A DNA stretch of 64,000 nt from positions 15,516 to 79,515 of the forward strand of contig CAZELA010000003.1 in NCBI GenBank assembly GCA_964512835.1, written 5' to 3'. The notes under the pieces are model-generated. The model was not told the origin of the DNA, ran no database searches, and was given only the letters and a program-made list of their open reading frames with translations. The stretch comes from an uncultured Candidatus Saccharibacteria bacterium. GTDB lineage: Bacteria; Patescibacteriota; Minisyncoccia; Phycocordibacterales; UBA2100. This document shows, piece after piece, positions 20,285 through 58,386 of this stretch (position 1 is its first letter; every line of letters begins with the position of its first letter). The translations under genes and the position numbers were made by a program.

Positions 20285-22072
20285 TTATTTTTGGTCGTCC
20301 TCGCGCTCAAAGAGCAGTTCGTCCGGAAGACGGAACAGTCCTTCGTCGTTTCGTTTTTGCTCTATGAAGTGAGAAATGAATCCGACGGTACGCGGGATCA
20401 CGAAGAGCGCGTTAAAAAATTCGGCCTCGATGAGCTCCCCGATCTCGGAATCGGTGTATCCTTCTTTTTCCTGCAGCAGATCCAAAAGCAATGCCGCCAT
20501 CACCCCGTCCACGTTCAGTATCAAATTACCGTTTTTGCCGGTCGTGACCGCTTCGATCGCACGAGCAAAGTCATAGTGAGGATGATTCGAGAGCAGTGAA
20601 GCGAACTCTGAGAGCGCCGCGACGCGCGGATCAGGAATGCCGACACGATATTTCCGGTGCCCGATACCGGAAAGCAGCACGCCGGATTTATTTTTTGCCT
20701 CCACATATGCAGCGGCGTCGTGAGCGCCTGTCACCCCTTCGTGCCAGCTCCGGGCGGCCTCATTTACTGCACCGCCGAAACGCGGACCGACGGTAAGGAG
20801 TCCCGCTGCGAGCGACGCAACCATGTCTTTACCTGCCCGCGCCGTCACCATCGTGTTGACCGCGCCGGAGACATGACCGCCATGATCGATCAGGAGCTCA
20901 AAAATATTTTCCACGAATGCGGCCGTCTCAGCGGAAACCCGTTTACCGAGGAGTGCATGCAGCGCGGCGGACGCAAACGCATTCTGCGGCTGTTGCACGA
21001 GCGTACCGTCTTTCACGAAGCGCGGAACCTCGTCGAGGTCCACAATCTTGCGCGATGAGAGAATGCTGTGTTTCCGGTTCATGAACAGGGCTGTATCAAT
21101 GACGGTATCACGAACGGACGGGAGCGGAAGGTCGCGAAGTGCCTGCAAAAAAAGCGGAAACGACTCCGGGGCAACAGCGCCCGCGGCATTCAGCGCGTCG
21201 CGCTTCGCACGCGCACTTTCATCTTTGCGTGCAACGAGCGCCTTCGCATGACCGAACTGCATACGCTCGTCGAACGCTTCGTCGATGACGCCCGCAACAT
21301 AACAGATGATAGGCTTCGTCAGTTTTTTTGTCCGCATGAGATCGACGATCTCGTACTCGTCAGAACCGCCGAGCTCACCGAAATACACGATCGCTTTTGT
21401 GGCCACATCCCCTTCTGCGAGCGCAAGCACCTGCGAGAGCGCAGTGACCGGGAACCGATCTCCACCGATTGAGAGCGAGAAGGAAACGCGCTTGCCCGCA
21501 TGTGACACGGCGCGGATCAGCTCGTTGGTCATGCCGCCTGAGGTAGAGACGACCGCGACCGACCCTTCGGTCGCCAGATGCCCCGCCTCGATCTGCGCTG
21601 CGTCGGTGCCGCCGATCGCACCAAGCTTCAGATAATGCGGCACAAGCAGCCCGACACCCGAAGGTCCGGCGATAAGATATCGCTCACCATAGCGGGCAAT
21701 GAGTTCGGTCGCGTGACGCTCAGGCACGTTTTCTGCGAACAAGTGTGCTCCGAGCGCATCCGGAAACGCATCGAAAAAACCGCAGGTCGTTTGGAACGTG
21801 CGTCTACCCGACTGCGCATTGAGGAGCCACTGTATTCGCGCCCGCATACGCTCCGGTATTGCAGCGTAGTCCCGGTAGCATGGGATCAAAATTTCGCGTG
21901 CTCCAAAAAAGAATTTTTGAGCCTTTCTCGTACCGGCGATGATACCGACGACCGATGGGGCAGATTTACCGGACAAAGCGTCGAAATCCAGAATCGACTG
22001 CACGATGCCGGCATGATTACCGACGACCAATATGCCGTCCCCTCCCGTGCGTATGTGTTCGAGTATCGTCAT
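20285..22072 (-). CDS. aclA: ATP-citrate lyase alpha subunit (CoA-binding/phosphohistidine domain plus citrate-synthase-like domain)
   Basis: Motif-level match to the C-terminal half of eukaryotic ACLY: 'MQFGHAKA' vs 'VQFGHAGA' catalytic His; 'HGGHVSGAVNTMVTARAGKDMVASLAAGLLTVGPRFGGA'; 'GIGHRKYRVGIPDPRV'; 'NLILNVDGVMAALLLDLL'; 'ALFVIPRTVGFISHFIEQKR'. 595 aa, typical of bacterial AclA. Confidence 0.88.
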   Translation of the reverse strand: MTILEHIRTGGDGILVVGNHAGIVQSILDFDALSGKSAPSVVGIIAGTRKAQKFFFGAREILIPCYRDYAAIPERMRARIQWLLNAQSGRRTFQTTCGFFDAFPDALGAHLFAENVPERHATELIARYGERYLIAGPSGVGLLVPHYLKLGAIGGTDAAQIEAGHLATEGSVAVVSTSGGMTNELIRAVSHAGKRVSFSLSIGGDRFPVTALSQVLALAEGDVATKAIVYFGELGGSDEYEIVDLMRTKKLTKPIICYVAGVIDEAFDERMQFGHAKALVARKDESARAKRDALNAAGAVAPESFPLFLQALRDLPLPSVRDTVIDTALFMNRKHSILSSRKIVDLDEVPRFVKDGTLVQQPQNAFASAALHALLGKRVSAETAAFVENIFELLIDHGGHVSGAVNTMVTARAGKDMVASLAAGLLTVGPRFGGAVNEAARSWHEGVTGAHDAAAYVEAKNKSGVLLSGIGHRKYRVGIPDPRVAALSEFASLLSNHPHYDFARAIEAVTTGKNGNLILNVDGVMAALLLDLLQEKEGYTDSEIGELIEAEFFNALFVIPRTVGFISHFIEQKRNDEGLFRLPDELLFEREDDQK

Positions 22073-23220
22073 GAGTGTATGTAGTGTATTGCCTCTTCGA
22101 CCGCGCGCGTGATTACCTCGTTCGAGCCATATACCGCACCGAGCAGCGATTCTCGTTCCAGAAAGTCATACATGAGTGAGAGCCCCGCGGCTTCGTTCGG
22201 ACCGCCGCGTCGGACGAATACTTTGATCCCCTGCTCACGCATACGCGGAGCGACCTCGGTAAGGGCGTCAATGATTCCAAGAAAGGTCTTTTTTACATCA
22301 GTGAAATTCGCGACGCCGCCCGCGATCACGAGTGCCTTTTTCGGTGCAGTTGAACCGAGCATGAGTGCAGCGATCTGCCGGGCATACAGAAATGTTTCCT
22401 CGCGTGTCGGGCCGCCGCTGTATTCGCCGTAATTCGCGAGCGCTCCGCCAAGTCCCTGCACCTGCACTTCATCGGCGATGACGATCGAGCCCCCGCCGCC
22501 TGAGAGCAGAAAGAATAGTGCCCCGTTCGGGTTGATGACCGAAAGCTTAAGGGAGGCCGGTGTCGTCGCGGCGAGTGCTTCTACCGCGTCCTCTGCCGGA
22601 TGTTTCGAGCGTGCGGTTATTACATCGTCACCCTTCCACGAATCACGTACAAAAAACTCGCCCGCACTGTCCACCAGCGCAGCAGCATCAAGGAGTTCCG
22701 CCATACCGTCTTGAACCACAAGCGGATTGATCTCGAGGAACGCAAAGAATTCTTTGTCGAACGCGACGAACACGCGCTCAAGAAATGGAGCGGGCACACC
22801 GGTCGTCTCGGCGATCTGCGCAACATCATTCGCGGTACGGATCAGAAATGTCTGCACGGCCTCCGGGTGCGCCTCGATGTCGACGCCGCCGTCCCGTGCG
22901 TACAGCACGCGGACACCTTCGCGCACGCGTTCGAATGAAATATAGCGGTCGTTCTGTGCATCGTGTTCAAAATACGGGTCGAGGATGAACTGAGAAAACC
23001 CTTTGGCTTCCCACGAGGCGATCGCGGCCCTGATGTCCGCCTCGCCCTTGTCCACAACGACAAGCCCCTGCTTAAAACGCTTCTTGATTCCCTGATCGAC
23101 TTTTGCGACCCACCGACCGGCCGGTATCGATATAGCACCCGAGCGGAGCTGTACGCCTGAATAGCGCTCGCCGAGCAAGATCTTTTTTGCTGTATATTCG
23201 CTCAGTTTTACGCGCGCCAT
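22069..23220 (-). CDS. aclB: ATP-citrate lyase beta subunit (ATP-grasp, succinyl-CoA-synthetase-beta-like)
   Basis: 'LEINPLVV', 'SLKLSVINPNG', 'GGGGSIVIADE...LANYGEYSGGP', 'VIAGGVANFTDV', 'VFVRRGGPNE' match the ACLY N-terminal region. Its stop overlaps the aclA start (ATGA coupling). Confidence 0.88.
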   Translation of the reverse strand: MARVKLSEYTAKKILLGERYSGVQLRSGAISIPAGRWVAKVDQGIKKRFKQGLVVVDKGEADIRAAIASWEAKGFSQFILDPYFEHDAQNDRYISFERVREGVRVLYARDGGVDIEAHPEAVQTFLIRTANDVAQIAETTGVPAPFLERVFVAFDKEFFAFLEINPLVVQDGMAELLDAAALVDSAGEFFVRDSWKGDDVITARSKHPAEDAVEALAATTPASLKLSVINPNGALFFLLSGGGGSIVIADEVQVQGLGGALANYGEYSGGPTREETFLYARQIAALMLGSTAPKKALVIAGGVANFTDVKKTFLGIIDALTEVAPRMREQGIKVFVRRGGPNEAAGLSLMYDFLERESLLGAVYGSNEVITRAVEEAIHYIHS

Positions 23221-39002: not shown

Positions 39003-41498
39003 TTAATAATCGTAGAAGTGGTCGATCTGTATTCCCTTGCGTGCAAGCGCTCGGTACACGTCGGCAAGATCCTGCACGTCAGCCTCGACCGTAACCCGGT
39101 CCTTGAGGACGTCTGTTCCATCGATGACCGATACAATCTCCGTGTCGCGCATGATTTCGCGCACCCGCTCGGGCGGCACTGCACCGACGGCATCTCGATA
39201 CGTGAACGTGATCGAATCGTTCCCGGATATGTCCTCGACGGCGAACCGTGCGTTCAGCCTCTCTTCGTCGAGGACCTCGAGAAGGCGTACGGTGAACGAA
39301 TGATAATGCGGGGCAGAGATGAGTTCGCTATGAACACCGTCTCGAGAAATGATTGCATAGACAACATCGTCCTGTACGCCGAACTTTGCATGGGTTGCTG
39401 CCCGGATGAGTGCCGCGTACACAGCCTTGATCCCATATTCGAGCGTCAGAAATGACTTTCGCTCGACGCGACGGATATTTTGTCCGACGGTGTAATCACG
39501 ATCTGCCTGCACGCGCCACAAGTCTTTCAGGTATCTTGCGTACGGGAAGTCGTACCACGGGTACGGATAAATGAAGTCCGCATACGCGCGTGCGGCATGT
39601 GCGGCAAACTCGTCTTCGGGCACACGGGTGTTCCCCGCCAGCCTTTCCGACAGTCGGCCGAGCGTACTCTCGTATAGATTCTTCACCGCATTCTCCACGC
39701 TGAAACTCCATCCGATGACTTGTAGGACGGTGATGTAATCGTCGTTGTTGTGCGGACTGTCAGCAACGAGAGCGGTTACCGCATTGAACTGCCGCCAATA
39801 CTCACGATTCGACGCGGAGTACGGGAAATGCGACGGCAGAGAATCACTGAGCACCGTGGCATATTCGTCTGCACTGTAGACGATGTACCACTCCGGTAAT
39901 GACAGGTACGCGTTGTCGTACGGACGATAGTACTCCGGCGTTGTGCTCGCGACCGATCGGATGCGCTGCTTGTCTTTGTAGTAGCGAAGTTTTTCCGGAC
40001 TGTAGTATTTATCCCACAACGAGTTGGTGAACTTATCCGTCGGATCGTACGCGTTCTTAATTTCAAAGTACTGCACCGCATTCGGGTACGCGCGATGCAA
40101 CTGATCGTCGGTCGCCCATGGCTGATACGGCAGGTAATATGTTCCTCCGACCGACAGTACCTCGTCGATCATCTGACGCGTCCACTTCCCTACGTGTTGT
40201 CGCGCAGCTTCGTCGGTCCCTTGCTTGTAATACACGACGAACGCAAAACTTTCGGTGCGCGCCCACGCGAGCTTTGCTCCCGGATCAGGCAACGCGTGAC
40301 GGATTGAGACGTTGAGAATGTTCACGTCGTTGTCTACAAAGACTTTTTTCATTTTGGGTACCCACTCGTCGAACCGCTCAACCGGTACGAAATATTCCTG
40401 GAGCACATACGAGCTGCCTCCACGATCCTTCGGCTCAAGCTCGGCAATATCGTAACTCGCCTCGTAATTGCGGGTATGTATCAGATGTTCCGCATAGATA
40501 TACGGCTCGAGTATGTATTCGCGAATAAGGTTCCCGAACGGCCACTCACTCATAACAACCCACGCAACACGCTCTTTCCAGTAATCCTGTTTACGCGGAA
40601 TGAGTCGGCCGGGAACGGTCGGCGGTCGGTCGGTTTTTGACCAGGTGACGACGGACACGTGTTTGAAGGCCGGCGGATACATGTCGCCGTTCTCGAACAG
40701 AACATCGGGGTTTGAGCGGACGTGGTCATTGAAGTACGCGAGATAGTCTTCGGTATTGATCTTGGTCTGTGCTCGTTCGACATTCACGTTGTCGGCAAGC
40801 TTGAGCGTGACGTCCGTAATGACGCCGATCCCTCCCATGCCGCCGATCGCGCTGTAAAAAATATCCGCATGACTGGTGGGTGAAGCCTCGATCACCGATC
40901 CGTCGGCGAGAACTATTTTGAAACTCTTTACACTGAGAATGATCGGCCCGAGACCGATGTAACGCCCGTGCACATTAACCGAAAGCGACCCGCCGACCGT
41001 GAAATTCGAATACGTCTGCATGATCATGATCGATAATCCGTACGGATCGATCGCGTCCTGGATGTCTCGCCACCGGGCGCCCGCCTGTACAGTCACCTCT
41101 TTGCTCGTCGTAGAGATGTTCAGGATCTTGTTGAACTCGCGCATGTCGATTTGCACCGCTCGGGGCGATGCGGTCTCGCCGCCCATGGAGTTTCGTCCGC
41201 CGCCGATGGAGACGTGGTCATGTGTCCTGACCGCCTCGACGATCTCTTCCGTTGTATGCGGCACGATGATCCCCTGTACATGCACCGGGTACAGCTCCGT
41301 TACGTCGGTGACGATATTCTGCTTTGTGTTTTCTGCTTCGCGCGCAAGTTTATCCGGTGTCGGGTCACCATGCACGCTGACTATCAGAAAAAGCAGTGCC
41401 ACGAACGGAAGCGCCAGGAGCACAGAGACCGCGCTGAGTACGCGCGTTCGGGTTATGTGTCGCGATACGGCGTGCAGGTATGAGCGCAGCCGCGTCAT
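39003..41498 (-). CDS. Membrane-anchored FAD-linked oxidoreductase (PCMH-type FAD_binding_4/ALO-like, ~480 aa) fused to a ~340-aa C-terminal domain of unknown function
   Basis: N-terminal TM; 'HVSIGGGRNSMGGETASP...VQAGARWRDIQDAIDPYGLSIMIMQTYSNFTVGGSLSVNVHGR' FAD-binding domain. I recognise no family for the C-terminal half. Confidence 0.8.
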   Translation of the reverse strand: MTRLRSYLHAVSRHITRTRVLSAVSVLLALPFVALLFLIVSVHGDPTPDKLAREAENTKQNIVTDVTELYPVHVQGIIVPHTTEEIVEAVRTHDHVSIGGGRNSMGGETASPRAVQIDMREFNKILNISTTSKEVTVQAGARWRDIQDAIDPYGLSIMIMQTYSNFTVGGSLSVNVHGRYIGLGPIILSVKSFKIVLADGSVIEASPTSHADIFYSAIGGMGGIGVITDVTLKLADNVNVERAQTKINTEDYLAYFNDHVRSNPDVLFENGDMYPPAFKHVSVVTWSKTDRPPTVPGRLIPRKQDYWKERVAWVVMSEWPFGNLIREYILEPYIYAEHLIHTRNYEASYDIAELEPKDRGGSSYVLQEYFVPVERFDEWVPKMKKVFVDNDVNILNVSIRHALPDPGAKLAWARTESFAFVVYYKQGTDEAARQHVGKWTRQMIDEVLSVGGTYYLPYQPWATDDQLHRAYPNAVQYFEIKNAYDPTDKFTNSLWDKYYSPEKLRYYKDKQRIRSVASTTPEYYRPYDNAYLSLPEWYIVYSADEYATVLSDSLPSHFPYSASNREYWRQFNAVTALVADSPHNNDDYITVLQVIGWSFSVENAVKNLYESTLGRLSERLAGNTRVPEDEFAAHAARAYADFIYPYPWYDFPYARYLKDLWRVQADRDYTVGQNIRRVERKSFLTLEYGIKAVYAALIRAATHAKFGVQDDVVYAIISRDGVHSELISAPHYHSFTVRLLEVLDEERLNARFAVEDISGNDSITFTYRDAVGAVPPERVREIMRDTEIVSVIDGTDVLKDRVTVEADVQDLADVYRALARKGIQIDHFYDY

Positions 41499-51636: not shown

Positions 51637-52278
51637 TCAGTAATCGTACGCTGTTCCGGTCTCGATTGCATCAAACGCGATGTTGTGGGATTTAAGGATG
51701 CCGCCGACCATTGCCGGAATAAACGCGGCGAATTGCGGGTGCAGGATCATATCGTGCACCGGGAACGCACGCTGCGGTTTGAGCATGATTGCGTAATCGA
51801 TTGCCTGGGACACCTTCATCCATGGACCGGCAACCGGAAGCGCCACGATTTCCACCGGCTCTCCCGGCTCAATAAACGCATCCCCCGGATACCAGAGGCG
51901 ACCCGCGATAAGAAATCCCGTATTTTGGATGCGCGGAATGGACGAGTGGATCTCTTCGTGCACGCCGGATACGCCGGTAAACGCAACGCCGCCGTGCTCG
52001 TGTGTCCCGTCCGTCATGGTGATGTGTTCGATGTGTTCGCGTGTGAGCAACGCAGACACCCCTTCGTTGCAGATAATCACAACCCTCGGGTTTGTAGCCA
52101 CAAGATGTTTTAACGATTCAAGGTGATAGTGGTCAGCGTGTTCGTGCGTGTAGAGAATAACGTCGATACCCGTGAGGGAGGAGTGGATGTTTGCAGTGAA
52201 TGCACCGGGGTCGGTCAGGATGCGGATCCCCCGCTCTTCAATCAGCAGACAACAATGTCCGTATTTCGTTATTTTCAT
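51637..52278 (-). CDS. Metallo-beta-lactamase-fold hydrolase
   Basis: 'YTHEHADH' (HxHxDH) motif. Confidence 0.85.
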   Translation of the reverse strand: MKITKYGHCCLLIEERGIRILTDPGAFTANIHSSLTGIDVILYTHEHADHYHLESLKHLVATNPRVVIICNEGVSALLTREHIEHITMTDGTHEHGGVAFTGVSGVHEEIHSSIPRIQNTGFLIAGRLWYPGDAFIEPGEPVEIVALPVAGPWMKVSQAIDYAIMLKPQRAFPVHDMILHPQFAAFIPAMVGGILKSHNIAFDAIETGTAYDY

Positions 52279-52293
52279 GCGCGTAGTATAGCC

Positions 52294-52707
52294 CTATCGT
52301 TCCTGAAGTTTCGATGTTTTGTAGATTTCGGGCTGAAAGGGTTTCAATCGGACGACACGGGTGTGCAATCCTGCACGGTCGAGCTCGGCCTGCAATTCGT
52401 TTACATAAAAGCTGTGCTGATCGTAGCCGAGCCCTATCACCTCGGGATCAGCCAAAACAATATGTCCGATGAAACCCTCACGATCTCCGAGAACCACCTC
52501 ATCCACAAGATTGCAGGCCTCGACCGTCTTGAGCCGTTCAAGCTCCGTATGTTTCGGCTTCATGCCTTTTATGCGTTCGGTCGATTGATCTCTCGCTATC
52601 GAAACAATGAGCTGCGGATCCTCTACGAGCGCGCGGGCCTGACGGAACATATCGAGATGTCCCTCGTGGAGCATGTCGAACGTACCGAATACCATTACCC
52701 GCCTCAT
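52294..52707 (-). CDS. Cytidylyltransferase-fold nucleotidyltransferase, RibL-like (putative FMN adenylyltransferase, archaeal type)
   Basis: '[22 protein letters not shown]...[18 protein letters not shown]' matches the (H/T)xGH nucleotidyltransferase core and resembles archaeal RibL/TagD. Start set at MRRVMVFG; it overlaps the upstream gene's stop by 4 nt. Confidence 0.7.
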
Positions 52708-53657
52708 GATGCGACTTCCTCCTGATTCTCCCGACTGAGCATATAGAGCGCAAACAGAAGCAGTGCGGTGCCTGCCCACTGCCCCACAAACAGGCCAAAG
52801 TAGGTGCCCGGAGCGTTATTCCCTGCGATGAAATATGCGTTCACAAATACAGCCGCGAGCGGAAACCCGAGCTCTGCGAGCGTTGCGATGGATGCTTTCG
52901 TGAACTGCAGTCCGTAGTAGTAGATAGAGAGCGAAAAGACTCCGGAAACCATTGCCACGATTGCGATAAAGAGCCAGTCCGTGGGAGTAATCGAAGCGAA
53001 CGGAGGCAACTGGTCTTGCGCCGCGGAAAGCATCATCAGAAACACAAAAGCAATACCGAAACGCAGCGCGGTGAGGGTTTGGAATGAACTTGTGCGCAGT
53101 GCGTACTTGCCCAGTACCGTTGATGCTCCCCACAAGAGCGCCGCAGCGAGCGCGAACAACACCCCGAGCATGTTCGGGTTGAACACTTCCCCTTCGTACA
53201 TTTGCGGGCGTATGTCCGGAAAGCTGATGAGGTACGCTCCCGCGATCGCAACGAGCGCCCATATCCAGAAATATTTATGCATGCGCTCTTTCAGAAAGAG
53301 AGCGGCGAGTGATATTGCGATCAACGGTTGCACCTTTTGCAGCAGGATCGCTACCGAGGGATTCACGTACGAGAACGACTGTGTGAATGCTATCGAGGCG
53401 AGCGCCGAACCACCCACTGCGATCACGATGATTGCCGCCCACTCGCGCTTGGTGAATGTCGCGAGCTCCCGCCAATTGAAGAACAGTACCGGGATTACGA
53501 ACAAAAGGTTTACCGCATGTTCGGCGAGCACGATAAAACTCGACGACAGATCCTTTGTAAGGTACGTGCGGAACGGCGCGTCGGTCGCCCACAGCATCGC
53601 CGCCGCGAAGACGAGCAAGGGGCCGAAAAATGCGAGGGATCGGGTTACCTGCTTCAT
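52704..53657 (-). CDS. DMT-superfamily (EamA) transporter; possible RibN-like riboflavin importer
   Basis: 10-TM EamA architecture, translationally coupled (4-nt overlaps) between the riboflavin kinase and RibL-like genes. The substrate is inferred from context only. Confidence 0.8.
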
Positions 53658-53998
53658 ATGTTCAGGAAGTATGCACGAACGAGCGCCACATCGGAAGCCA
53701 TGGCGGCTTTGAGGTCACCGTCGTTCTCAAACCGGCGGTTGTCCCGGATCTTTTCGTATACATCTATGCGCGCGGTCTTGCCGTACAGATTCCCCGACAT
53801 ATCGAGCAAGTGCGCTTCGAGCACCCCGCGTTTTGCATCGCGGAACGCCGCCGCCAAGAACTCCGCGCCGTCGATCACGACTTTCGCCGCGTAAATACCG
53901 TCAAGATCACAGTCGGCGCACTCGATGTTGATAGTGGGGTACCCGAGAAGGGCGGCTCGCTTCGAGCCGTGAACCACTTCACCGGTGAATGATTTCAT
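53654..53998 (-). CDS. Monofunctional riboflavin kinase (bacterial RibF C-terminal-domain type)
   Basis: 'GEVVHGSKRAALLGYPTINI...GIYAAKV...HLLDMSGNLYG' riboflavin kinase motifs; 114 aa. Confidence 0.8.
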   Translation of the reverse strand: MKSFTGEVVHGSKRAALLGYPTINIECADCDLDGIYAAKVVIDGAEFLAAAFRDAKRGVLEAHLLDMSGNLYGKTARIDVYEKIRDNRRFENDGDLKAAMASDVALVRAYFLNI

Positions 53999-54001
53999 AT
54001 A

Positions 54002-55051
54002 TCAGTTAATCTCGATATCTATGTATCGCACATGCGGACAGGCACTTTTCACGCGCCCCTCAATCTCGTCGATCTTCTTTCCGATCATGCGCGGTATACG
54101 ATCGGCATACCACACACAGAATCGCTTGAATGCTTCGTAGTCGTTGCTGATGTTATCGAATTCCGAGAGTAACGACTCCTGCTGGTACGCCTCGTTCATC
54201 AGCGCAGCGCCATTGAACTCGATCTCGAACTTCACACGGTAGACGCCGATGTCGAGGACCGTCGATTTGAAGTCGATCACGCGCTCGATCGCCGGTTCAC
54301 CGGCGAGCACGTCCATGATTGCATCCTGATCGTCTTCGGGAATCGCACGACCGATAAGGTACGAGCGGTTTTTTGCAATCAATGCAATCGCAACAATACC
54401 AAGCAGTGTTGCGATGATGATCGAACCTACTGCATCCCATCGGGGATTACTCGTCAGGTACGAGAGAATAATTGAGCTCGCTGCGATAATGACGCCGAAC
54501 ACGGCGACACCGTCCTCGAGACACACGGCAAGTGTTGACGGGTCCGCAAGGACAAACCGTTCGGTCCATGACTGTTTAGGGAACGAACGTGCGAGTGATC
54601 GCAGTGCTACCCAGAGCGTAAGCGCCTCGACTACGAATGCCACCAAAAGCACCGCAAACGTAAGCGCGCTGATCTCGATCGGCTTAGGGTGCTGCAGTGC
54701 CTCGATGCCGTGATACATGGTGACCCCTGCCCCGACAAAGAAGATGCCGCACGCCGAAATGAGCGCCCAAAAGAACCGCTCGTTGCCGAATCCGTACGCG
54801 AATTCACTCGTGGGCTTTTTATGCGAGCGGGTGACGCCCACTAAAAGCAATGCTTGATTACTGGTGTCAGCAAAGCTGTGAATGGCCTCTGAGAACATGG
54901 CGCTTGAACCTGAGGCAGAGGCAGCCAGTACTTTGAAGACAGTGACGAGTGCATTCCCTATCAGGGCCGCCAGCACCGGCCAAAACCCTTTCGACTTCGC
55001 GATAGCCATTCGGACCACTCTATCATTGTCGATCTGTGCGATTGCTTGCAT
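54002..55051 (-). CDS. Cation diffusion facilitator (CDF) family metal efflux transporter
   Basis: 6-TM core with 'SEAIHSFADTSNQ' and 'GIIIATLLGIVA' CDF signatures plus a C-terminal cytoplasmic domain. Confidence 0.88.
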   Translation of the reverse strand: MQAIAQIDNDRVVRMAIAKSKGFWPVLAALIGNALVTVFKVLAASASGSSAMFSEAIHSFADTSNQALLLVGVTRSHKKPTSEFAYGFGNERFFWALISACGIFFVGAGVTMYHGIEALQHPKPIEISALTFAVLLVAFVVEALTLWVALRSLARSFPKQSWTERFVLADPSTLAVCLEDGVAVFGVIIAASSIILSYLTSNPRWDAVGSIIIATLLGIVAIALIAKNRSYLIGRAIPEDDQDAIMDVLAGEPAIERVIDFKSTVLDIGVYRVKFEIEFNGAALMNEAYQQESLLSEFDNISNDYEAFKRFCVWYADRIPRMIGKKIDEIEGRVKSACPHVRYIDIEIN

Positions 55052-55276: not shown

Positions 55277-56173
55277 ATGAAAAAGCGCACACCGATCGGC
55301 GTGGTGGTCGGCCGATTCCAGGTCGCCACCCTCCACAAGGGACACAAGCATCTGCTCACGTACGCCGATACGCGAAATGAACACCTGCTGGTTGTTCTCG
55401 GTACACCGGAGTTCCCTACCCCACGCAACCCGCTCTCGTTCGAGATGCGGAAGCACATGATCGAAGAAGCGTACCCTGAAGCGATCGTCGTCGAACTTCG
55501 TGACACACCCAAGGATGCCGTCTGGAGCACACAGCTCGATTCGATCATTCGACGGAAGTTTCCGAACGCCGATGCGACACTCTACGGATCACGTGATTCG
55601 TTCCTGTCAGTGTACTGCGGCACCAACCGCACCGAGCTCGTTCCCGAGCTTGTGGGATATTCCGGAACCGTCGAGCGAGCGAAGTACACACCCTCGAAGA
55701 CGACGACTGCGGCATTCCGTGCCGGCGTCGTTCACGGATTCACGAGCAGACTCAAGATGACCCGACCGATGGTCGACATCGCGATCCTGAAACGTCGTGA
55801 AGGCTTGATACTCCTGGGCGGTAAACCTACAGACCCGAAGGGTCTGTGGCGTTTCCCCGGAGGCTTGGTGGATCCGACTGACCCGTCGCTCGAATTCGCC
55901 GCAAAACGCGAATCGTACGAAGAAGTTCGGAACATCGAGATCGACGACGTCACCTACATCGGTTCGACGTCGGTCAATGACAGCCGCTATCGCGGCACCG
56001 GTGAATACGCGATCACCGCACTGTGTATCGCGACCTACATCTTCGGCAGAGCAGAAGCGGGCGATGATCTCTCGCGAGTCGAGTGGTTCCCTGTCTCGCA
56101 ACTGCCGAAGGTGCTCATCCCCGAGCATCGTAAGCTCGGCGAGATGCTCACCAACTATCTCTCACGCGCGTAA
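55277..56173 (+). CDS. nadM: Bifunctional NMN adenylyltransferase / Nudix hydrolase (NadM-Nudix)
   Basis: N-terminal 'GVVVGRFQVATLHKGHKHLL' archaeal-type NMNAT (HxGH) and C-terminal Nudix box 'GGKPTDPKGLWRFPGGLVDPTDPSLEFAAKRESYEEV'. Confidence 0.88.
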   Translation: MKKRTPIGVVVGRFQVATLHKGHKHLLTYADTRNEHLLVVLGTPEFPTPRNPLSFEMRKHMIEEAYPEAIVVELRDTPKDAVWSTQLDSIIRRKFPNADATLYGSRDSFLSVYCGTNRTELVPELVGYSGTVERAKYTPSKTTTAAFRAGVVHGFTSRLKMTRPMVDIAILKRREGLILLGGKPTDPKGLWRFPGGLVDPTDPSLEFAAKRESYEEVRNIEIDDVTYIGSTSVNDSRYRGTGEYAITALCIATYIFGRAEAGDDLSRVEWFPVSQLPKVLIPEHRKLGEMLTNYLSRA

Positions 56174-56193
56174 GCGCTCCATAGGAGGACGTC

Positions 56194-57607
56194 ATGAACG
56201 CCCATGTAGGACCACTGACTTCGATCACAACGGCCGGCATCATCACGCTGACCGATAGCTACAAGCCGACGCACTGGCTGCAGACACCGTCGAGAACGAC
56301 GATGATCTATTCGTTCCTGGAAAGCCGCGGCGGCAAGTTCAATGCCGTTACGTTCTTCGGTCTGCAGTACTACCTGATGAAGTACTTCGCGGGAGTGGTG
56401 GTGAACGAACAGTTCATCAAGAAGGCCCGTCGACGTTTCAGGGCTCACTTCGGCAACGACGCGCTGTTCAACGAAGCCGGATGGCTACGACTGATCGAGA
56501 AACACGGCGGCAAGCTGCCGATCCGCATCAAGGCGGCCCGAAGGAACAACTGTTCCGACCGGCAACGTACTGATGACAATCGAGAACACCGACGAGGAAT
56601 TCGCCTGGATCACGAACTACCTCGAGACCTTGCTCTCGATGGTGTGGTACCCGTCGACCGTGGCGACGCAGAGCCGTGAAATGCGTCGGGTACTGCTCAA
56701 GTACCTGGTCATGACCGGCGATCCGTCGCTCATCGACTTCAAACTGCACGACTTCGGTTTCCGCGGTTCGACCTCGGTCGAAAGTGCGGGAATCGGCGGC
56801 GCTGCGCATCTGGTGAACTTTTTGGGCACCGATACGCTCGCCGCACTTGATGTCGCCGAAGACTACTACGACGAAGAAAGCGCCGGATTCTCAATTCCGG
56901 CAGCCGAACACTCCACGATTACCTCGTGGGGTCGCGAGAACGAGGCCGAAGCATTCGAAAACATGCTCACGCAGTTCCCGAGCGGACTCGTTGCCGTGGT
57001 GTCCGACAGCTACAACATCTACGAAGCGTGCAAGAAGATCTGGGGCGAACAGCTTCGGGAGAAAGTGCTCGCTCGTGATGGCGTGCTTGTCGTTCGACCG
57101 GATTCCGGCTACCCGCCGGACACGGTCGTCGTCGTGCTGAACATCCTGGGCGAGAAGTTCGGATACACCATGAACGACAAGGGCTACAAAGTCCTGAATC
57201 CGAAGGTTCGCGTCATCCAGGGTGACGGCATCGACTACGAGATGCTCGACAAGGTGCTGGTCGCGATGAAGATCGCCGGATGGTCGGCGGACAATGTCGC
57301 GTTCGGCTCGGGCGGCGGTCTCCTGCAGAAGGTCAACCGTGACACGCAGAAGTTCGCGATCAAGTGCTCGTATATGGAAGTCGCCGGCGAAGGTCGCGAC
57401 GTGATGAAGGACCCGATCACCGACCCGGGCAAGCGCTCGAAGGCGGGCCGACTCGCGCTCGTGAAGATCGATGGCGAGTTCAAGACCGTCCGCGAGGAAG
57501 AGGCAGCCCGCCTCGGACTCAAGGATGAGCTCGAGACCGTGTTCGAGAACGGCGAGATCCTGGTCAAGCACAGCTTCGCGGACATTCGTGCCCGCGCAGC
57601 AATCTGA
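56194..57607 (+). pseudogene. nadV: Nicotinamide phosphoribosyltransferase (NadV/NAMPT) interrupted by a -1 frameshift near 56535-56545
   Basis: Frame 1 (56194..~56540) encodes the NAMPT N-terminus ('...LPIRIKAA'). Frame 2 from ~56541 continues '(R)PEGTTVPTGNVLMTIENTDEEFAWITNYLETLLSMVWYP...', matching '[23 protein letters not shown]...' of known NAMPT. One missing C in the 'gcggcccg' run explains it. It is either a true pseudogene or an assembly error. Confidence 0.85.
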
Positions 57608-57693
57608 TTACTCCGTTTTCCCTCTTCCGCGCGCACTTCGGTGCGCGCGGTTCTTTGTTGCATGAACGTTCACAGAAAAGCTACTATGCTGCC

Positions 57694-58386
57694 ATGTCTC
57701 CCCTTCTCATACTTACCTGGACCGCGGCAGTCTCCCTGTGCGCGATCGGCGCCGCGTACTACGCACGAACATCCGGCCGCGCAGATGCGATCGTCGCACT
57801 CTATGTCACGCTCGTCGTGGCCTCGAATTTAGTCGCGTCAAAGATAGTCGGTTTTGACGTCGGTGCGACCACCCTTTTTGCTCCCGGTGCGACACTTCTG
57901 TTTTCGGTCACCTTTTTGCTGACCGACATCGTGAACGAGCGATTCGGCAGACAGGAAACCCAACGGATGATCTACATCGCCATGTTCGCACAACTCGCGT
58001 TTCTGCTCTTCGGTTACATCGCTGTGTCGGCTACGCCCGCGCCGTTCTTTTCGGGACAGGCTGCCTTTGAAACCGTGTTCGGAACGGTACCGCGCATCGC
58101 ACTCGCCGGACTCGTCACGTTTCTCATCAGCGAGTCACTCGATGCATATCTGTATCAGTGGTTTCGCCTGAAAACGCATGGCCGCAATTTGTGGCTGCGA
58201 AACGCGTTCAGCTCCATACCCGCGATGCTTTTGGACAGCGCGCTATTCGTCACGCTAGCGTTTTACGGAACGACGGCACTCCTACCGCTCATCATCGGAC
58301 TCACGATTGTGAAATGGATTGTCGCGGTGATCGACATTCCGTTCATGTACGCCGCCCGCTGGGTACTCGGTACGCGCAGTTCCTAG
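57694..58386 (+). CDS. YhhQ/VUT-family (DUF165) membrane transporter, queuosine-precursor-transporter family
   Basis: 6-TM 'vitamin uptake transporter'-like protein with conserved 'LLTDIVNERFG' region. Start set at MSPLLIL. Confidence 0.75.
   Translation: MSPLLILTWTAAVSLCAIGAAYYARTSGRADAIVALYVTLVVASNLVASKIVGFDVGATTLFAPGATLLFSVTFLLTDIVNERFGRQETQRMIYIAMFAQLAFLLFGYIAVSATPAPFFSGQAAFETVFGTVPRIALAGLVTFLISESLDAYLYQWFRLKTHGRNLWLRNAFSSIPAMLLDSALFVTLAFYGTTALLPLIIGLTIVKWIVAVIDIPFMYAARWVLGTRSS

Follow-up and report, generated by a model that had tools for sequence, protein, structure and literature searches.

Introduction

In ordinary bacteria, a bifunctional RibF performs both the phosphorylation of riboflavin to flavin mononucleotide (FMN) and the adenylylation of FMN to flavin adenine dinucleotide (FAD), and the riboflavin transporters RibN and ImpX belong to the drug/metabolite transporter (DMT) superfamily. 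We analysed a stretch of 64,000 nucleotides (contig CAZELA010000003.1, assembly GCA_964512835.1; hereafter the window) from a Patescibacteria (Candidate Phyla Radiation, CPR) bacterium resembling Paceibacteria/Kaiserbacteria, in which three successive genes encode a stand-alone riboflavin kinase (RFK), a DMT permease and a small nucleotidyltransferase (NT) related to the archaeal FAD synthase RibL. With all catalytic and transport activities assigned from sequence and gene context, the three genes probably form a compact flavin-cofactor salvage module.

The RibL protein of M. jannaschii (MjRibL, MJ1179) is a characterised archaeal FAD synthase (Mashhadi et al. 2010, as cited in PMC11423594). 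In Archaea, RibL is paired with the CTP-dependent kinase RibK, and orthologues of both proteins were reported in Archaea and as absent from Bacteria (Rodionov et al. 2017, PMC5397151). EhFADS of Entamoeba histolytica is also of the RibL type, likewise has a non-archaeal kinase partner and was shown to be active (PMC11423594); it is eukaryotic, corresponds to a separate acquisition, and is likened here to the window enzyme by description alone. Among the transporters, RibN was reported only in Proteobacteria and ImpX in Firmicutes, Fusobacteria and Proteobacteria, with an FMN riboswitch upstream of ImpX and of the alpha-proteobacterial RibN (PMC4418817). For Parcubacteria, Nelson & Stegen (2015) described the lack of ribF/ribKL, of riboflavin transporters and of FMN riboswitches, with the FAD-dependent MurB and TrxB being kept, and listed FAD synthase among the near-universal functions missing from these genomes (PMC4508563). 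We found no paper on a RibL-type FAD synthase or on a DMT riboflavin transporter in Patescibacteria, Parcubacteria or CPR.

Results

Organisation of the three-gene cluster

A first-pass annotation, made from the DNA letters, had proposed three open reading frames (ORFs) joined by two ATGA overlaps. These ORFs, their coordinates and both overlaps were confirmed on the minus strand, as follows.

53654..53998, minus strand: predicted riboflavin kinase, monofunctional, RibF C-terminal-domain type, 114 aa (PF01687)
52704..53657, minus strand: EamA/DMT-superfamily permease, 317 aa, ten predicted transmembrane segments (TMS), candidate riboflavin importer (PF00892, twice)
52294..52707, minus strand: predicted RibL-type FMN adenylyltransferase / FAD synthase, 137 aa (PF01467 and comparison with RibL)
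53654..53657, minus strand: ATGA overlap, kinase stop and DMT start (sequence reading)
52704..52707, minus strand: ATGA overlap, DMT stop and RibL-type gene start (sequence reading)
52718..52723, minus strand: Shine-Dalgarno sequence AGGAGG within the end of the DMT gene, 10 nt before the RibL-type start (sequence reading)

The Pfam scores were 85 bits for Flavokinase PF01687 (cut-off 19.6), 124 bits for the two EamA domains and 59 bits for CTP_transf_like PF01467, and for each of the three proteins the nearest homologues were those of Candidatus Paceibacterota, Kaiserbacteria, Nomurabacteria and other Patescibacteria. At the first overlap, the ATG of the DMT gene (53657-53655) shares bases with the TGA of the kinase gene (53656-53654), and at the second the ATG of the nucleotidyltransferase gene (52707-52705) shares bases with the TGA of the DMT gene (52706-52704). 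A mechanical reading of the third ORF reaches a GTG at 52779, giving 161 aa; the 137-aa reading is favoured because the homologues begin at MxRIMVFGTFD in the alignment, and the GTG-initiated form was rejected on this alignment and on the position of the ribosome-binding site. The overlaps and the internal Shine-Dalgarno sequence suggest that translation of the three genes may be coupled. ATGA is the most common type of gene overlap in bacteria, and such overlaps are unremarkable per se because they are ordinary in bacterial operons; the feature of the locus that is not due to chance is the recurrence of the same gene set across many genomes. A consensus scan at the cluster gave no promoter or terminator signal above the shuffle expectation.

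A stand-alone kinase of the RibF C-terminal type

The kinase aligned with the kinase domains of the S. pneumoniae and T. maritima RibF structures, and it keeps both the PT(A/I)N-type motif, here GYPTIN, and the catalytic Glu, in LEAHLLD. Using as query E. coli RibF, a reference validated by exact look-up, tblastn matched the window solely through residues 190-307 of the query, and the N-terminal FMN adenylyltransferase (FMNAT) domain was found neither in the window nor in 150 related loci. With only 3 nt separating the preceding gene from the ATG of the kinase gene, there is no space for such a domain. That the protein is a monofunctional kinase of the RibF C-terminal type, as first annotated, is thus well supported by its sequence, and its predicted reaction is the conversion of riboflavin and ATP into FMN. 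The kinase domain of bifunctional RibF is homologous to it and RibF carries out the same two reactions as those predicted here; the window differs in having two separate genes and an FMNAT that belongs to the RibL branch and not to PF06574.

A nucleotidyltransferase of the archaeal RibL type

The 137-aa protein showed 36% identity to MjRibL across 124 aa (E 2e-26), and hhalign of the two gave a probability of 99.6; the MjRibL reference was verified by exact look-up as WP_010870692 / RIBL_METJA 'FAD synthase'. Both are small single-domain proteins of the nucleotidyltransferase fold and have in common the HxGH motif and the ARDxxxxxxKGxKP and LG(Y/P)DQ blocks. The HxGH-type motif of the window protein, HEGH, spans residues 14-17 and is unchanged across 34 homologues; a KTS motif near the C-terminus (K130/S132) is likewise invariant among homologues. 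The AlphaFold2 model of the protein (pLDDT 88) has a Rossmann-like beta-alpha pattern, and a Foldseek search of the PDB library placed 3glv at the top (TM 0.80/0.89, 34% identity). The same entry led the PDB profile search, with 95 bits over the full length, compared with 45-47 bits for TagD; the choline- and ethanolamine-phosphate cytidylyltransferases and TagD matched over the N-terminal half only, or at about 45 bits, and CoaD, the phosphopantetheine adenylyltransferase (PPAT), was absent among the matches. In direct alignment, TagD_BACSU covered the N-terminal 72 aa only.

A neighbour-joining tree (200 bootstraps) was built from the CPR sequences, five archaeal sequences, MjRibL, 3glv, TagD, the RibF N-terminal domain (RibF-N), NadM and CoaD, the last being an E. 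coli sequence that failed exact-sequence validation and was used as an outgroup only. The CPR, DPANN and Methanosarcinales sequences, MjRibL and 3glv were monophyletic with 96.5% bootstrap support. Within this group the CPR sequences were themselves monophyletic (99%) and stood beside those of DPANN and Methanosarcinales. TagD, E. coli RibF-N, the NadM domain encoded in the window itself and CoaD all fell outside. The tree, the direct alignments and the PDB searches agree with the archaeal RibL affiliation proposed in the first pass, and by sequence the closest non-CPR relatives of the enzyme are archaeal. We infer from the grouping with MjRibL that 3glv, a structural-genomics entry deposited as a Thermoplasma volcanium 'lipopolysaccharide core biosynthesis protein' and the closest solved structure to the window enzyme, is the Thermoplasma RibL orthologue. 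By family, the 137-aa protein is well supported as a RibL-type FAD synthase with the predicted reaction FMN + ATP -> FAD + pyrophosphate. This assignment is not new at the database level, because pipelines already name some relatives 'FAD synthetase' (Joint Genome Institute) or 'FAD synthase' (NCBI, Azambacteria); other sources use 'choline-phosphate cytidylyltransferase' for some of them.

More distant RibL-like domains were seen fused to Nudix, Ham1, HAD, 5-formyl-tetrahydrofolate cyclo-ligase, TruB or AsnC-type helix-turn-helix domains (P0428, P0458, P0480, P0439, P0477, P0421, P0471, P0493, P0441, P0495 and P0502). By analogy, the fusions to Nudix and HAD could link the making of FAD to hydrolysis of FAD or FMN, for which a plant enzyme that combines these activities is a precedent (PMC9678776).

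Conservation of the cluster in related genomes

Relatives of the RibL-type gene were collected in 70 loci, 65 from CPR and 5 archaeal, and architectures were counted in the 52 RibL-selected CPR loci with at least 2.5 kb of upstream sequence. A kinase gene lay upstream of the RibL gene, on the same strand, in 41 of these 52 loci. The main architectures were:

RFK-DMT-NT (that of the window): 12 loci
RFK-NT: 10 loci
NT alone: 10 loci
RFK-RibE-RibH-DMT-NT: 7 loci
RFK-RibE-RibH-NT: 7 loci
RFK-DMT-RibE-RibH-NT: 3 loci

A stretch of about 1 kb, often present between the kinase and RibL genes, encodes riboflavin synthase (RibE, two Lum_binding domains) and lumazine synthase (RibH, DMRL_synthase), as confirmed by Pfam. 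Both genes were found within the cluster in at least 23 RibL-selected loci, and about one third of the related genomes have them there. Examples are L009 4932-5994, L018 4874-5932, L029 4940-5995 and L157 3938-4996, along with about 20 other loci. Up to four flavin-pathway families, namely kinase, riboflavin synthase, lumazine synthase and RibL, are thus clustered, and the position of the DMT gene varies inside the cluster. Together with the fusions described below, these arrangements strongly bear out the flavin theme that had been read from the window.

Other genes were observed inside the flavin clusters of relatives: one for an inositol-monophosphatase-family protein, one for an S-adenosylmethionine-dependent methyltransferase (three loci) and one, immediately preceding the RibL gene, for a regulator of the TrmB family (loci with extra genes: L045 5222-6001, L052 2513-3292, L060 5113-5898, L063 766-1551, and L041 and L044 5249-6004). 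The TrmB-family protein is a possible case of protein-based control replacing the missing FMN riboswitch.

The window lineage itself appears, from its sequence, to have a reduced form of the cluster that retains RibE/RibH in relatives. Neither RibE nor RibH, searched with queries from the closest relatives, gave a match in the 64-kb window, nor did RibA and RibB with validated E. coli queries (RibD was not among the queries); RibA and RibB also had no match in any of the 150 fetched loci. The earlier statement that the organism has no riboflavin biosynthesis therefore holds for RibA, RibB, RibE and RibH within the window, and it is to this stretch that it must be confined. The relatives that bear RibE and RibH would either have the early pathway elsewhere in the genome or salvage a late precursor.

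Fusions between cluster proteins

When 1.8 billion representatives were searched exhaustively with the CPR profile, the best match was a protein of 252 aa (P0415) in which an N-terminal riboflavin kinase is fused to a RibL-type domain. This kinase-first order is the reverse of that of RibF (FMNAT-N and RFK-C), and by domain content the fusion is a reversed, non-homologous predicted analogue of RibF. An in-frame DMT::RibL fusion of 448 aa (P0198) was also found in two independent assemblies (L157 5001-6347 and L158 5001-6347), where the order is RFK-RibE-RibH-[DMT::RibL]-extracytoplasmic function (ECF) sigma factor-RuvX. The latter fusion would be topologically sensible because the C-terminus of the 10-TMS protein is predicted to be cytoplasmic.

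The DMT permease and its gene context

Ten hydrophobic segments were recognised in the permease; the loops that follow TM2, TM4, TM6 and TM8 are rich in K/R, and both termini are predicted to be cytoplasmic. Like RibN and ImpX it is a ten-TMS protein with two EamA domains. It differs from them in that no FMN riboswitch accompanies it and in the distribution of its clade, which is found in CPR and DPANN and has Bacteroidota homologues; to call it 'RibN-type' would be an analogy. A second set of 80 metagenome loci was selected through the DMT gene (56-87% identity). The kinase gene was upstream in 36 of the 49 loci with enough upstream sequence, and the RibL gene was downstream in 23 of the 45 with enough downstream sequence. 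Several divergent DMT loci without an adjacent RibL gene had the kinase upstream or RibE-RibH directly downstream.

The linkage extends to Archaea. A Nanobdellota archaeon has the order RibL, a winged-helix plus CTP-dependent riboflavin kinase (RbkR-like), and a DMT protein 34% identical to that of the window, and in a Woesearchaeota locus a CTP-dependent riboflavin kinase gene directly precedes the DMT gene. The DPANN loci linking a DMT homologue to the archaeal CTP-dependent kinase/regulator are L074 6001-8013, which also has RibL, and L161 3-1010. The strongest argument that this DMT clade handles a flavin is thus that its genes are linked, in Bacteria and in Archaea, to riboflavin kinases that are not homologous to each other. 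As a candidate function, riboflavin import by the permease is well supported by this context; ImpX and RfnT were likewise first predicted from their linkage to flavin genes (PMC4418817).

No FMN riboswitch (RF00050) was detected in the window, where the threshold was relaxed to E up to 5 over the region of the cluster, in 12 related loci searched at the gathering threshold, or in three L074-type DMT homologue loci (two from Bacteroidota, one from Woesearchaeota) at E up to 0.1. This absence agrees with the observations of Nelson & Stegen on Parcubacteria.

Neighbouring genes and other features of the window

The three flavin genes are part of a long co-directional string, which continues downstream with genes for a metallo-beta-lactamase (MBL)-fold hydrolase, RuvX, a tRNA-binding protein and PilM. 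The immediate neighbours of the cluster are:

54002..55051, minus strand: cation-diffusion-facilitator (CDF) transporter (PF01545, TIGR01297), ending 3 nt upstream of the kinase gene
51637..52278, minus strand: MBL-fold hydrolase (PF13483), starting 15 nt downstream of the RibL-type gene

The CDF gene is probably co-transcribed with the kinase gene, yet it is not a conserved member of the module, adjoining it in only 4 of the 65 related CPR loci. The MBL-fold hydrolase gene, with no known role in flavin metabolism, was present in 7 of these 65 loci, and only the closest relatives have it next to the cluster.

Divergent from the flavin string, positions 55277-58386 (plus strand) hold an NAD salvage set made of NadM-Nudix (55277-56173), a nicotinamide/nicotinate phosphoribosyltransferase and a transporter. 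The latter is a Vut_1/YhhQ-like 'vitamin uptake' protein (57655-58386, plus strand) whose score exceeds the cut-off set for the queuosine-precursor transporter model. This set and the flavin genes make up a small vitamin-salvage island. The phosphoribosyltransferase gene is split into overlapping ORFs at 56194-56679 and 56573-57607 (plus strand; 161 and 344 aa). The same split occurs in an identical Logan contig, and an intact 471-aa gene is found in an NCBI metagenome-assembled genome (MAG; L001 5099-6514); the split reflects a frameshift, decay into a pseudogene, or misassembly.

The window is 100% identical to the Logan contig, from SRR23702483, and 88-100% identical, in a mosaic manner, to CAZWFX010000006.1 of the MAG GCA_964633425.1. 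Between 45130 and 62665, the comparison with L001 shows stretches of 100% identity beside others of 88-91%, the NadM-Nudix protein being 79% identical and the RibL-type and MBL proteins 100%. This mosaic points either to a chimeric assembly or to recombination among strains that live together.

Elsewhere in the window, an 831-aa protein (39003-41498, minus strand) with an N-terminal FAD_binding_4 (PCMH-type) domain is likely an FAD-dependent client of the pathway. At 20285-23220 (minus strand), a pair of adjacent genes shows the domain composition expected for the subunits of ATP-citrate lyase or citryl-CoA synthetase, with Citrate_bind and ATP-grasp domains in one and CoA-ligase and citrate-synthase C-terminal domains in the other; such a pair seems unexpected in a metabolically reduced CPR genome.

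Discussion

In the pathway that we propose, the DMT permease would import riboflavin, the stand-alone bacterial-type kinase would convert it into FMN, the phosphorylation also trapping the flavin inside the cell, and the RibL-type nucleotidyltransferase would adenylylate FMN to FAD. The two enzymes would jointly replace bifunctional RibF, a bacterial ATP-type kinase being paired here with an archaeal-type partner, and the cluster would be regulated without an FMN riboswitch.

Several observations weigh against this proposal, and most of them concern the permease. Every source annotates it only as 'DMT family transporter', it matches no specific NCBIfam model, and in the PDB profile search its sole sequence match was the choline transporter LicB. 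Bacteroidota relatives 57-66% identical to the archaeal DMT protein are common and stand alone, without flavin neighbours, and one Bacteroidota homologue is 32% identical to the window permease. Because these relatives have neither flavin context nor riboswitch, the substrate may differ within the subfamily. Genes for DUF2007 and Aminotran_4 proteins recur beside the Bacteroidota homologues (L159, L160, L163 and L166). Gene order is also generally conserved in the clade, unrelated RuvX and tRNA-binding genes following the RibL gene in nearly every locus, so that synteny and fusions alone are weak functional evidence. Fusions to RuvX exist as well, namely RFK::RibL::RuvX (P0417, 384 aa) and RibL::RuvX (P0416, 265 aa). 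Because RibL::RuvX fusions occur, we down-weighted the fusions as 'Rosetta stone' evidence, and in genomes as compact as these a fused ORF may owe more to neighbouring gene positions or to sequencing errors than to function. As regards the enzyme, the window protein, which is bacterial and has a different C-terminus, lacks the cysteines C126 and C143 of MjRibL, its sole Cys being residue 65, which is not conserved. The active Entamoeba enzyme is likewise without these two residues (PMC11423594), so they are dispensable for activity; by analogy the CPR enzyme, lacking cysteines tied to air sensitivity and metal binding in MjRibL, is probably oxygen-tolerant. Finally, ribF and the other rib genes were searched within 64 kb of the genome.

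The alternative that survives best, although we consider it unlikely, accepts both enzymes as proposed and has the permease carry another metabolite, or export one, with riboflavin entering otherwise and the DMT gene standing in the cluster by inherited order. The generic annotation, the missing riboswitch, the Bacteroidota homologues without flavin context and the equal synteny of RuvX and tRNA_bind with the RibL gene all fit this reading, as do the ten loci where kinase and nucleotidyltransferase genes have no DMT gene between them and the ten where the latter is alone. Simple inheritance of gene order sits less well with a DMT gene that shifts before or after RibE-RibH yet remains inside the cluster, and that retains a kinase or RibE/RibH neighbour where the RibL gene is elsewhere. 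The link to a non-homologous archaeal kinase in two DPANN lineages and the DMT::RibL fusion in two independent assemblies also argue for a role of the permease in flavin handling.

Another reading, which we find rather improbable, is that the organism does not depend purely on external riboflavin: biosynthetic rib genes, or a canonical ribF, would be located beyond the window, and the cluster would be just the distal part of a complete pathway. The close relatives L009 and L010, whose RibL-type enzymes are 74-76% identical to that of the window, hold RibE and RibH inside the cluster, and the stretch examined here is 64 kb long. On the other side, the window has no RibA, RibB, RibE, RibH or RibF-N match, Parcubacteria were reported to lack riboflavin synthesis (PMC4508563; PMC5220378), and a transporter gene embedded in the cluster favours uptake.

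We regard as still less probable that the permease imports another compound of the flavin pathway, such as 6,7-dimethyl-8-ribityllumazine, 5-amino-6-ribitylaminouracil, or FMN/FAD. Late-precursor salvage fits the RibL-selected loci, at least 23, that encode lumazine and riboflavin synthases in the cluster with no RibA or RibB found nearby, but RibA, RibB and RibD could simply lie beyond the 12-kb loci. For the present organism, a late precursor would be useless unless RibE and RibH, both missing from the window, are encoded elsewhere in the genome, and import of FMN/FAD would make the kinase redundant.

That the 137-aa protein is some other cytidylyltransferase-fold enzyme unrelated to flavins (TagD-like, HldE domain II-like or PPAT/CoaD) is hardly credible: although the generic TIGR00125 is the sole NCBIfam domain above cut-off, with rfaE_dom_II and TagD as next matches, and although the labels of some relatives and of 3glv point to choline-phosphate or lipopolysaccharide metabolism, the scores lie far under the family cut-offs (TagD TIGR01518 33.4 vs 165.4; rfaE II 51 vs 181; CoaD TIGR01510 22.7 vs 103.3; archaeal PPAT NF001985 28.8 vs 104), and the protein has a full-length match to characterised RibL, its place with RibL in the tree, linkage to RFK, RibE and RibH, and fusion to RFK.

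The proposed salvage module would then represent a known pathway in hybrid form, adding no new chemistry but a credible new transporter candidate. With its more than 100 relatives, the cluster indicates that a large CPR lineage has a predicted route to FAD, in which a bacterial kinase is combined with an adenylyltransferase of archaeal type. It would thereby close the gap described for these bacteria, and it supplies a concrete candidate for the riboflavin uptake step. We lean slightly towards the view that the DMT proteins of this clade are flavin importers of a family not recognised before and common to CPR and DPANN. With a stand-alone kinase and a RibL-type enzyme that is shared laterally, they would constitute a portable 'flavin salvage cassette', whose parts are joined in some genomes into single RFK::RibL or DMT::RibL polypeptides. 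If so, the clade would carry riboflavin, or possibly a late precursor in genomes with RibE/RibH, and the cassette would explain how MurB, TrxB and other flavoenzymes are supplied in Parcubacteria. The cluster and its relatives bear on gene sharing between CPR and DPANN, on how hundreds of genes now labelled 'cytidyltransferase-like' or 'DMT family' should be annotated, and on what episymbionts take from their hosts or environment, including riboflavin supplementation for their cultivation.

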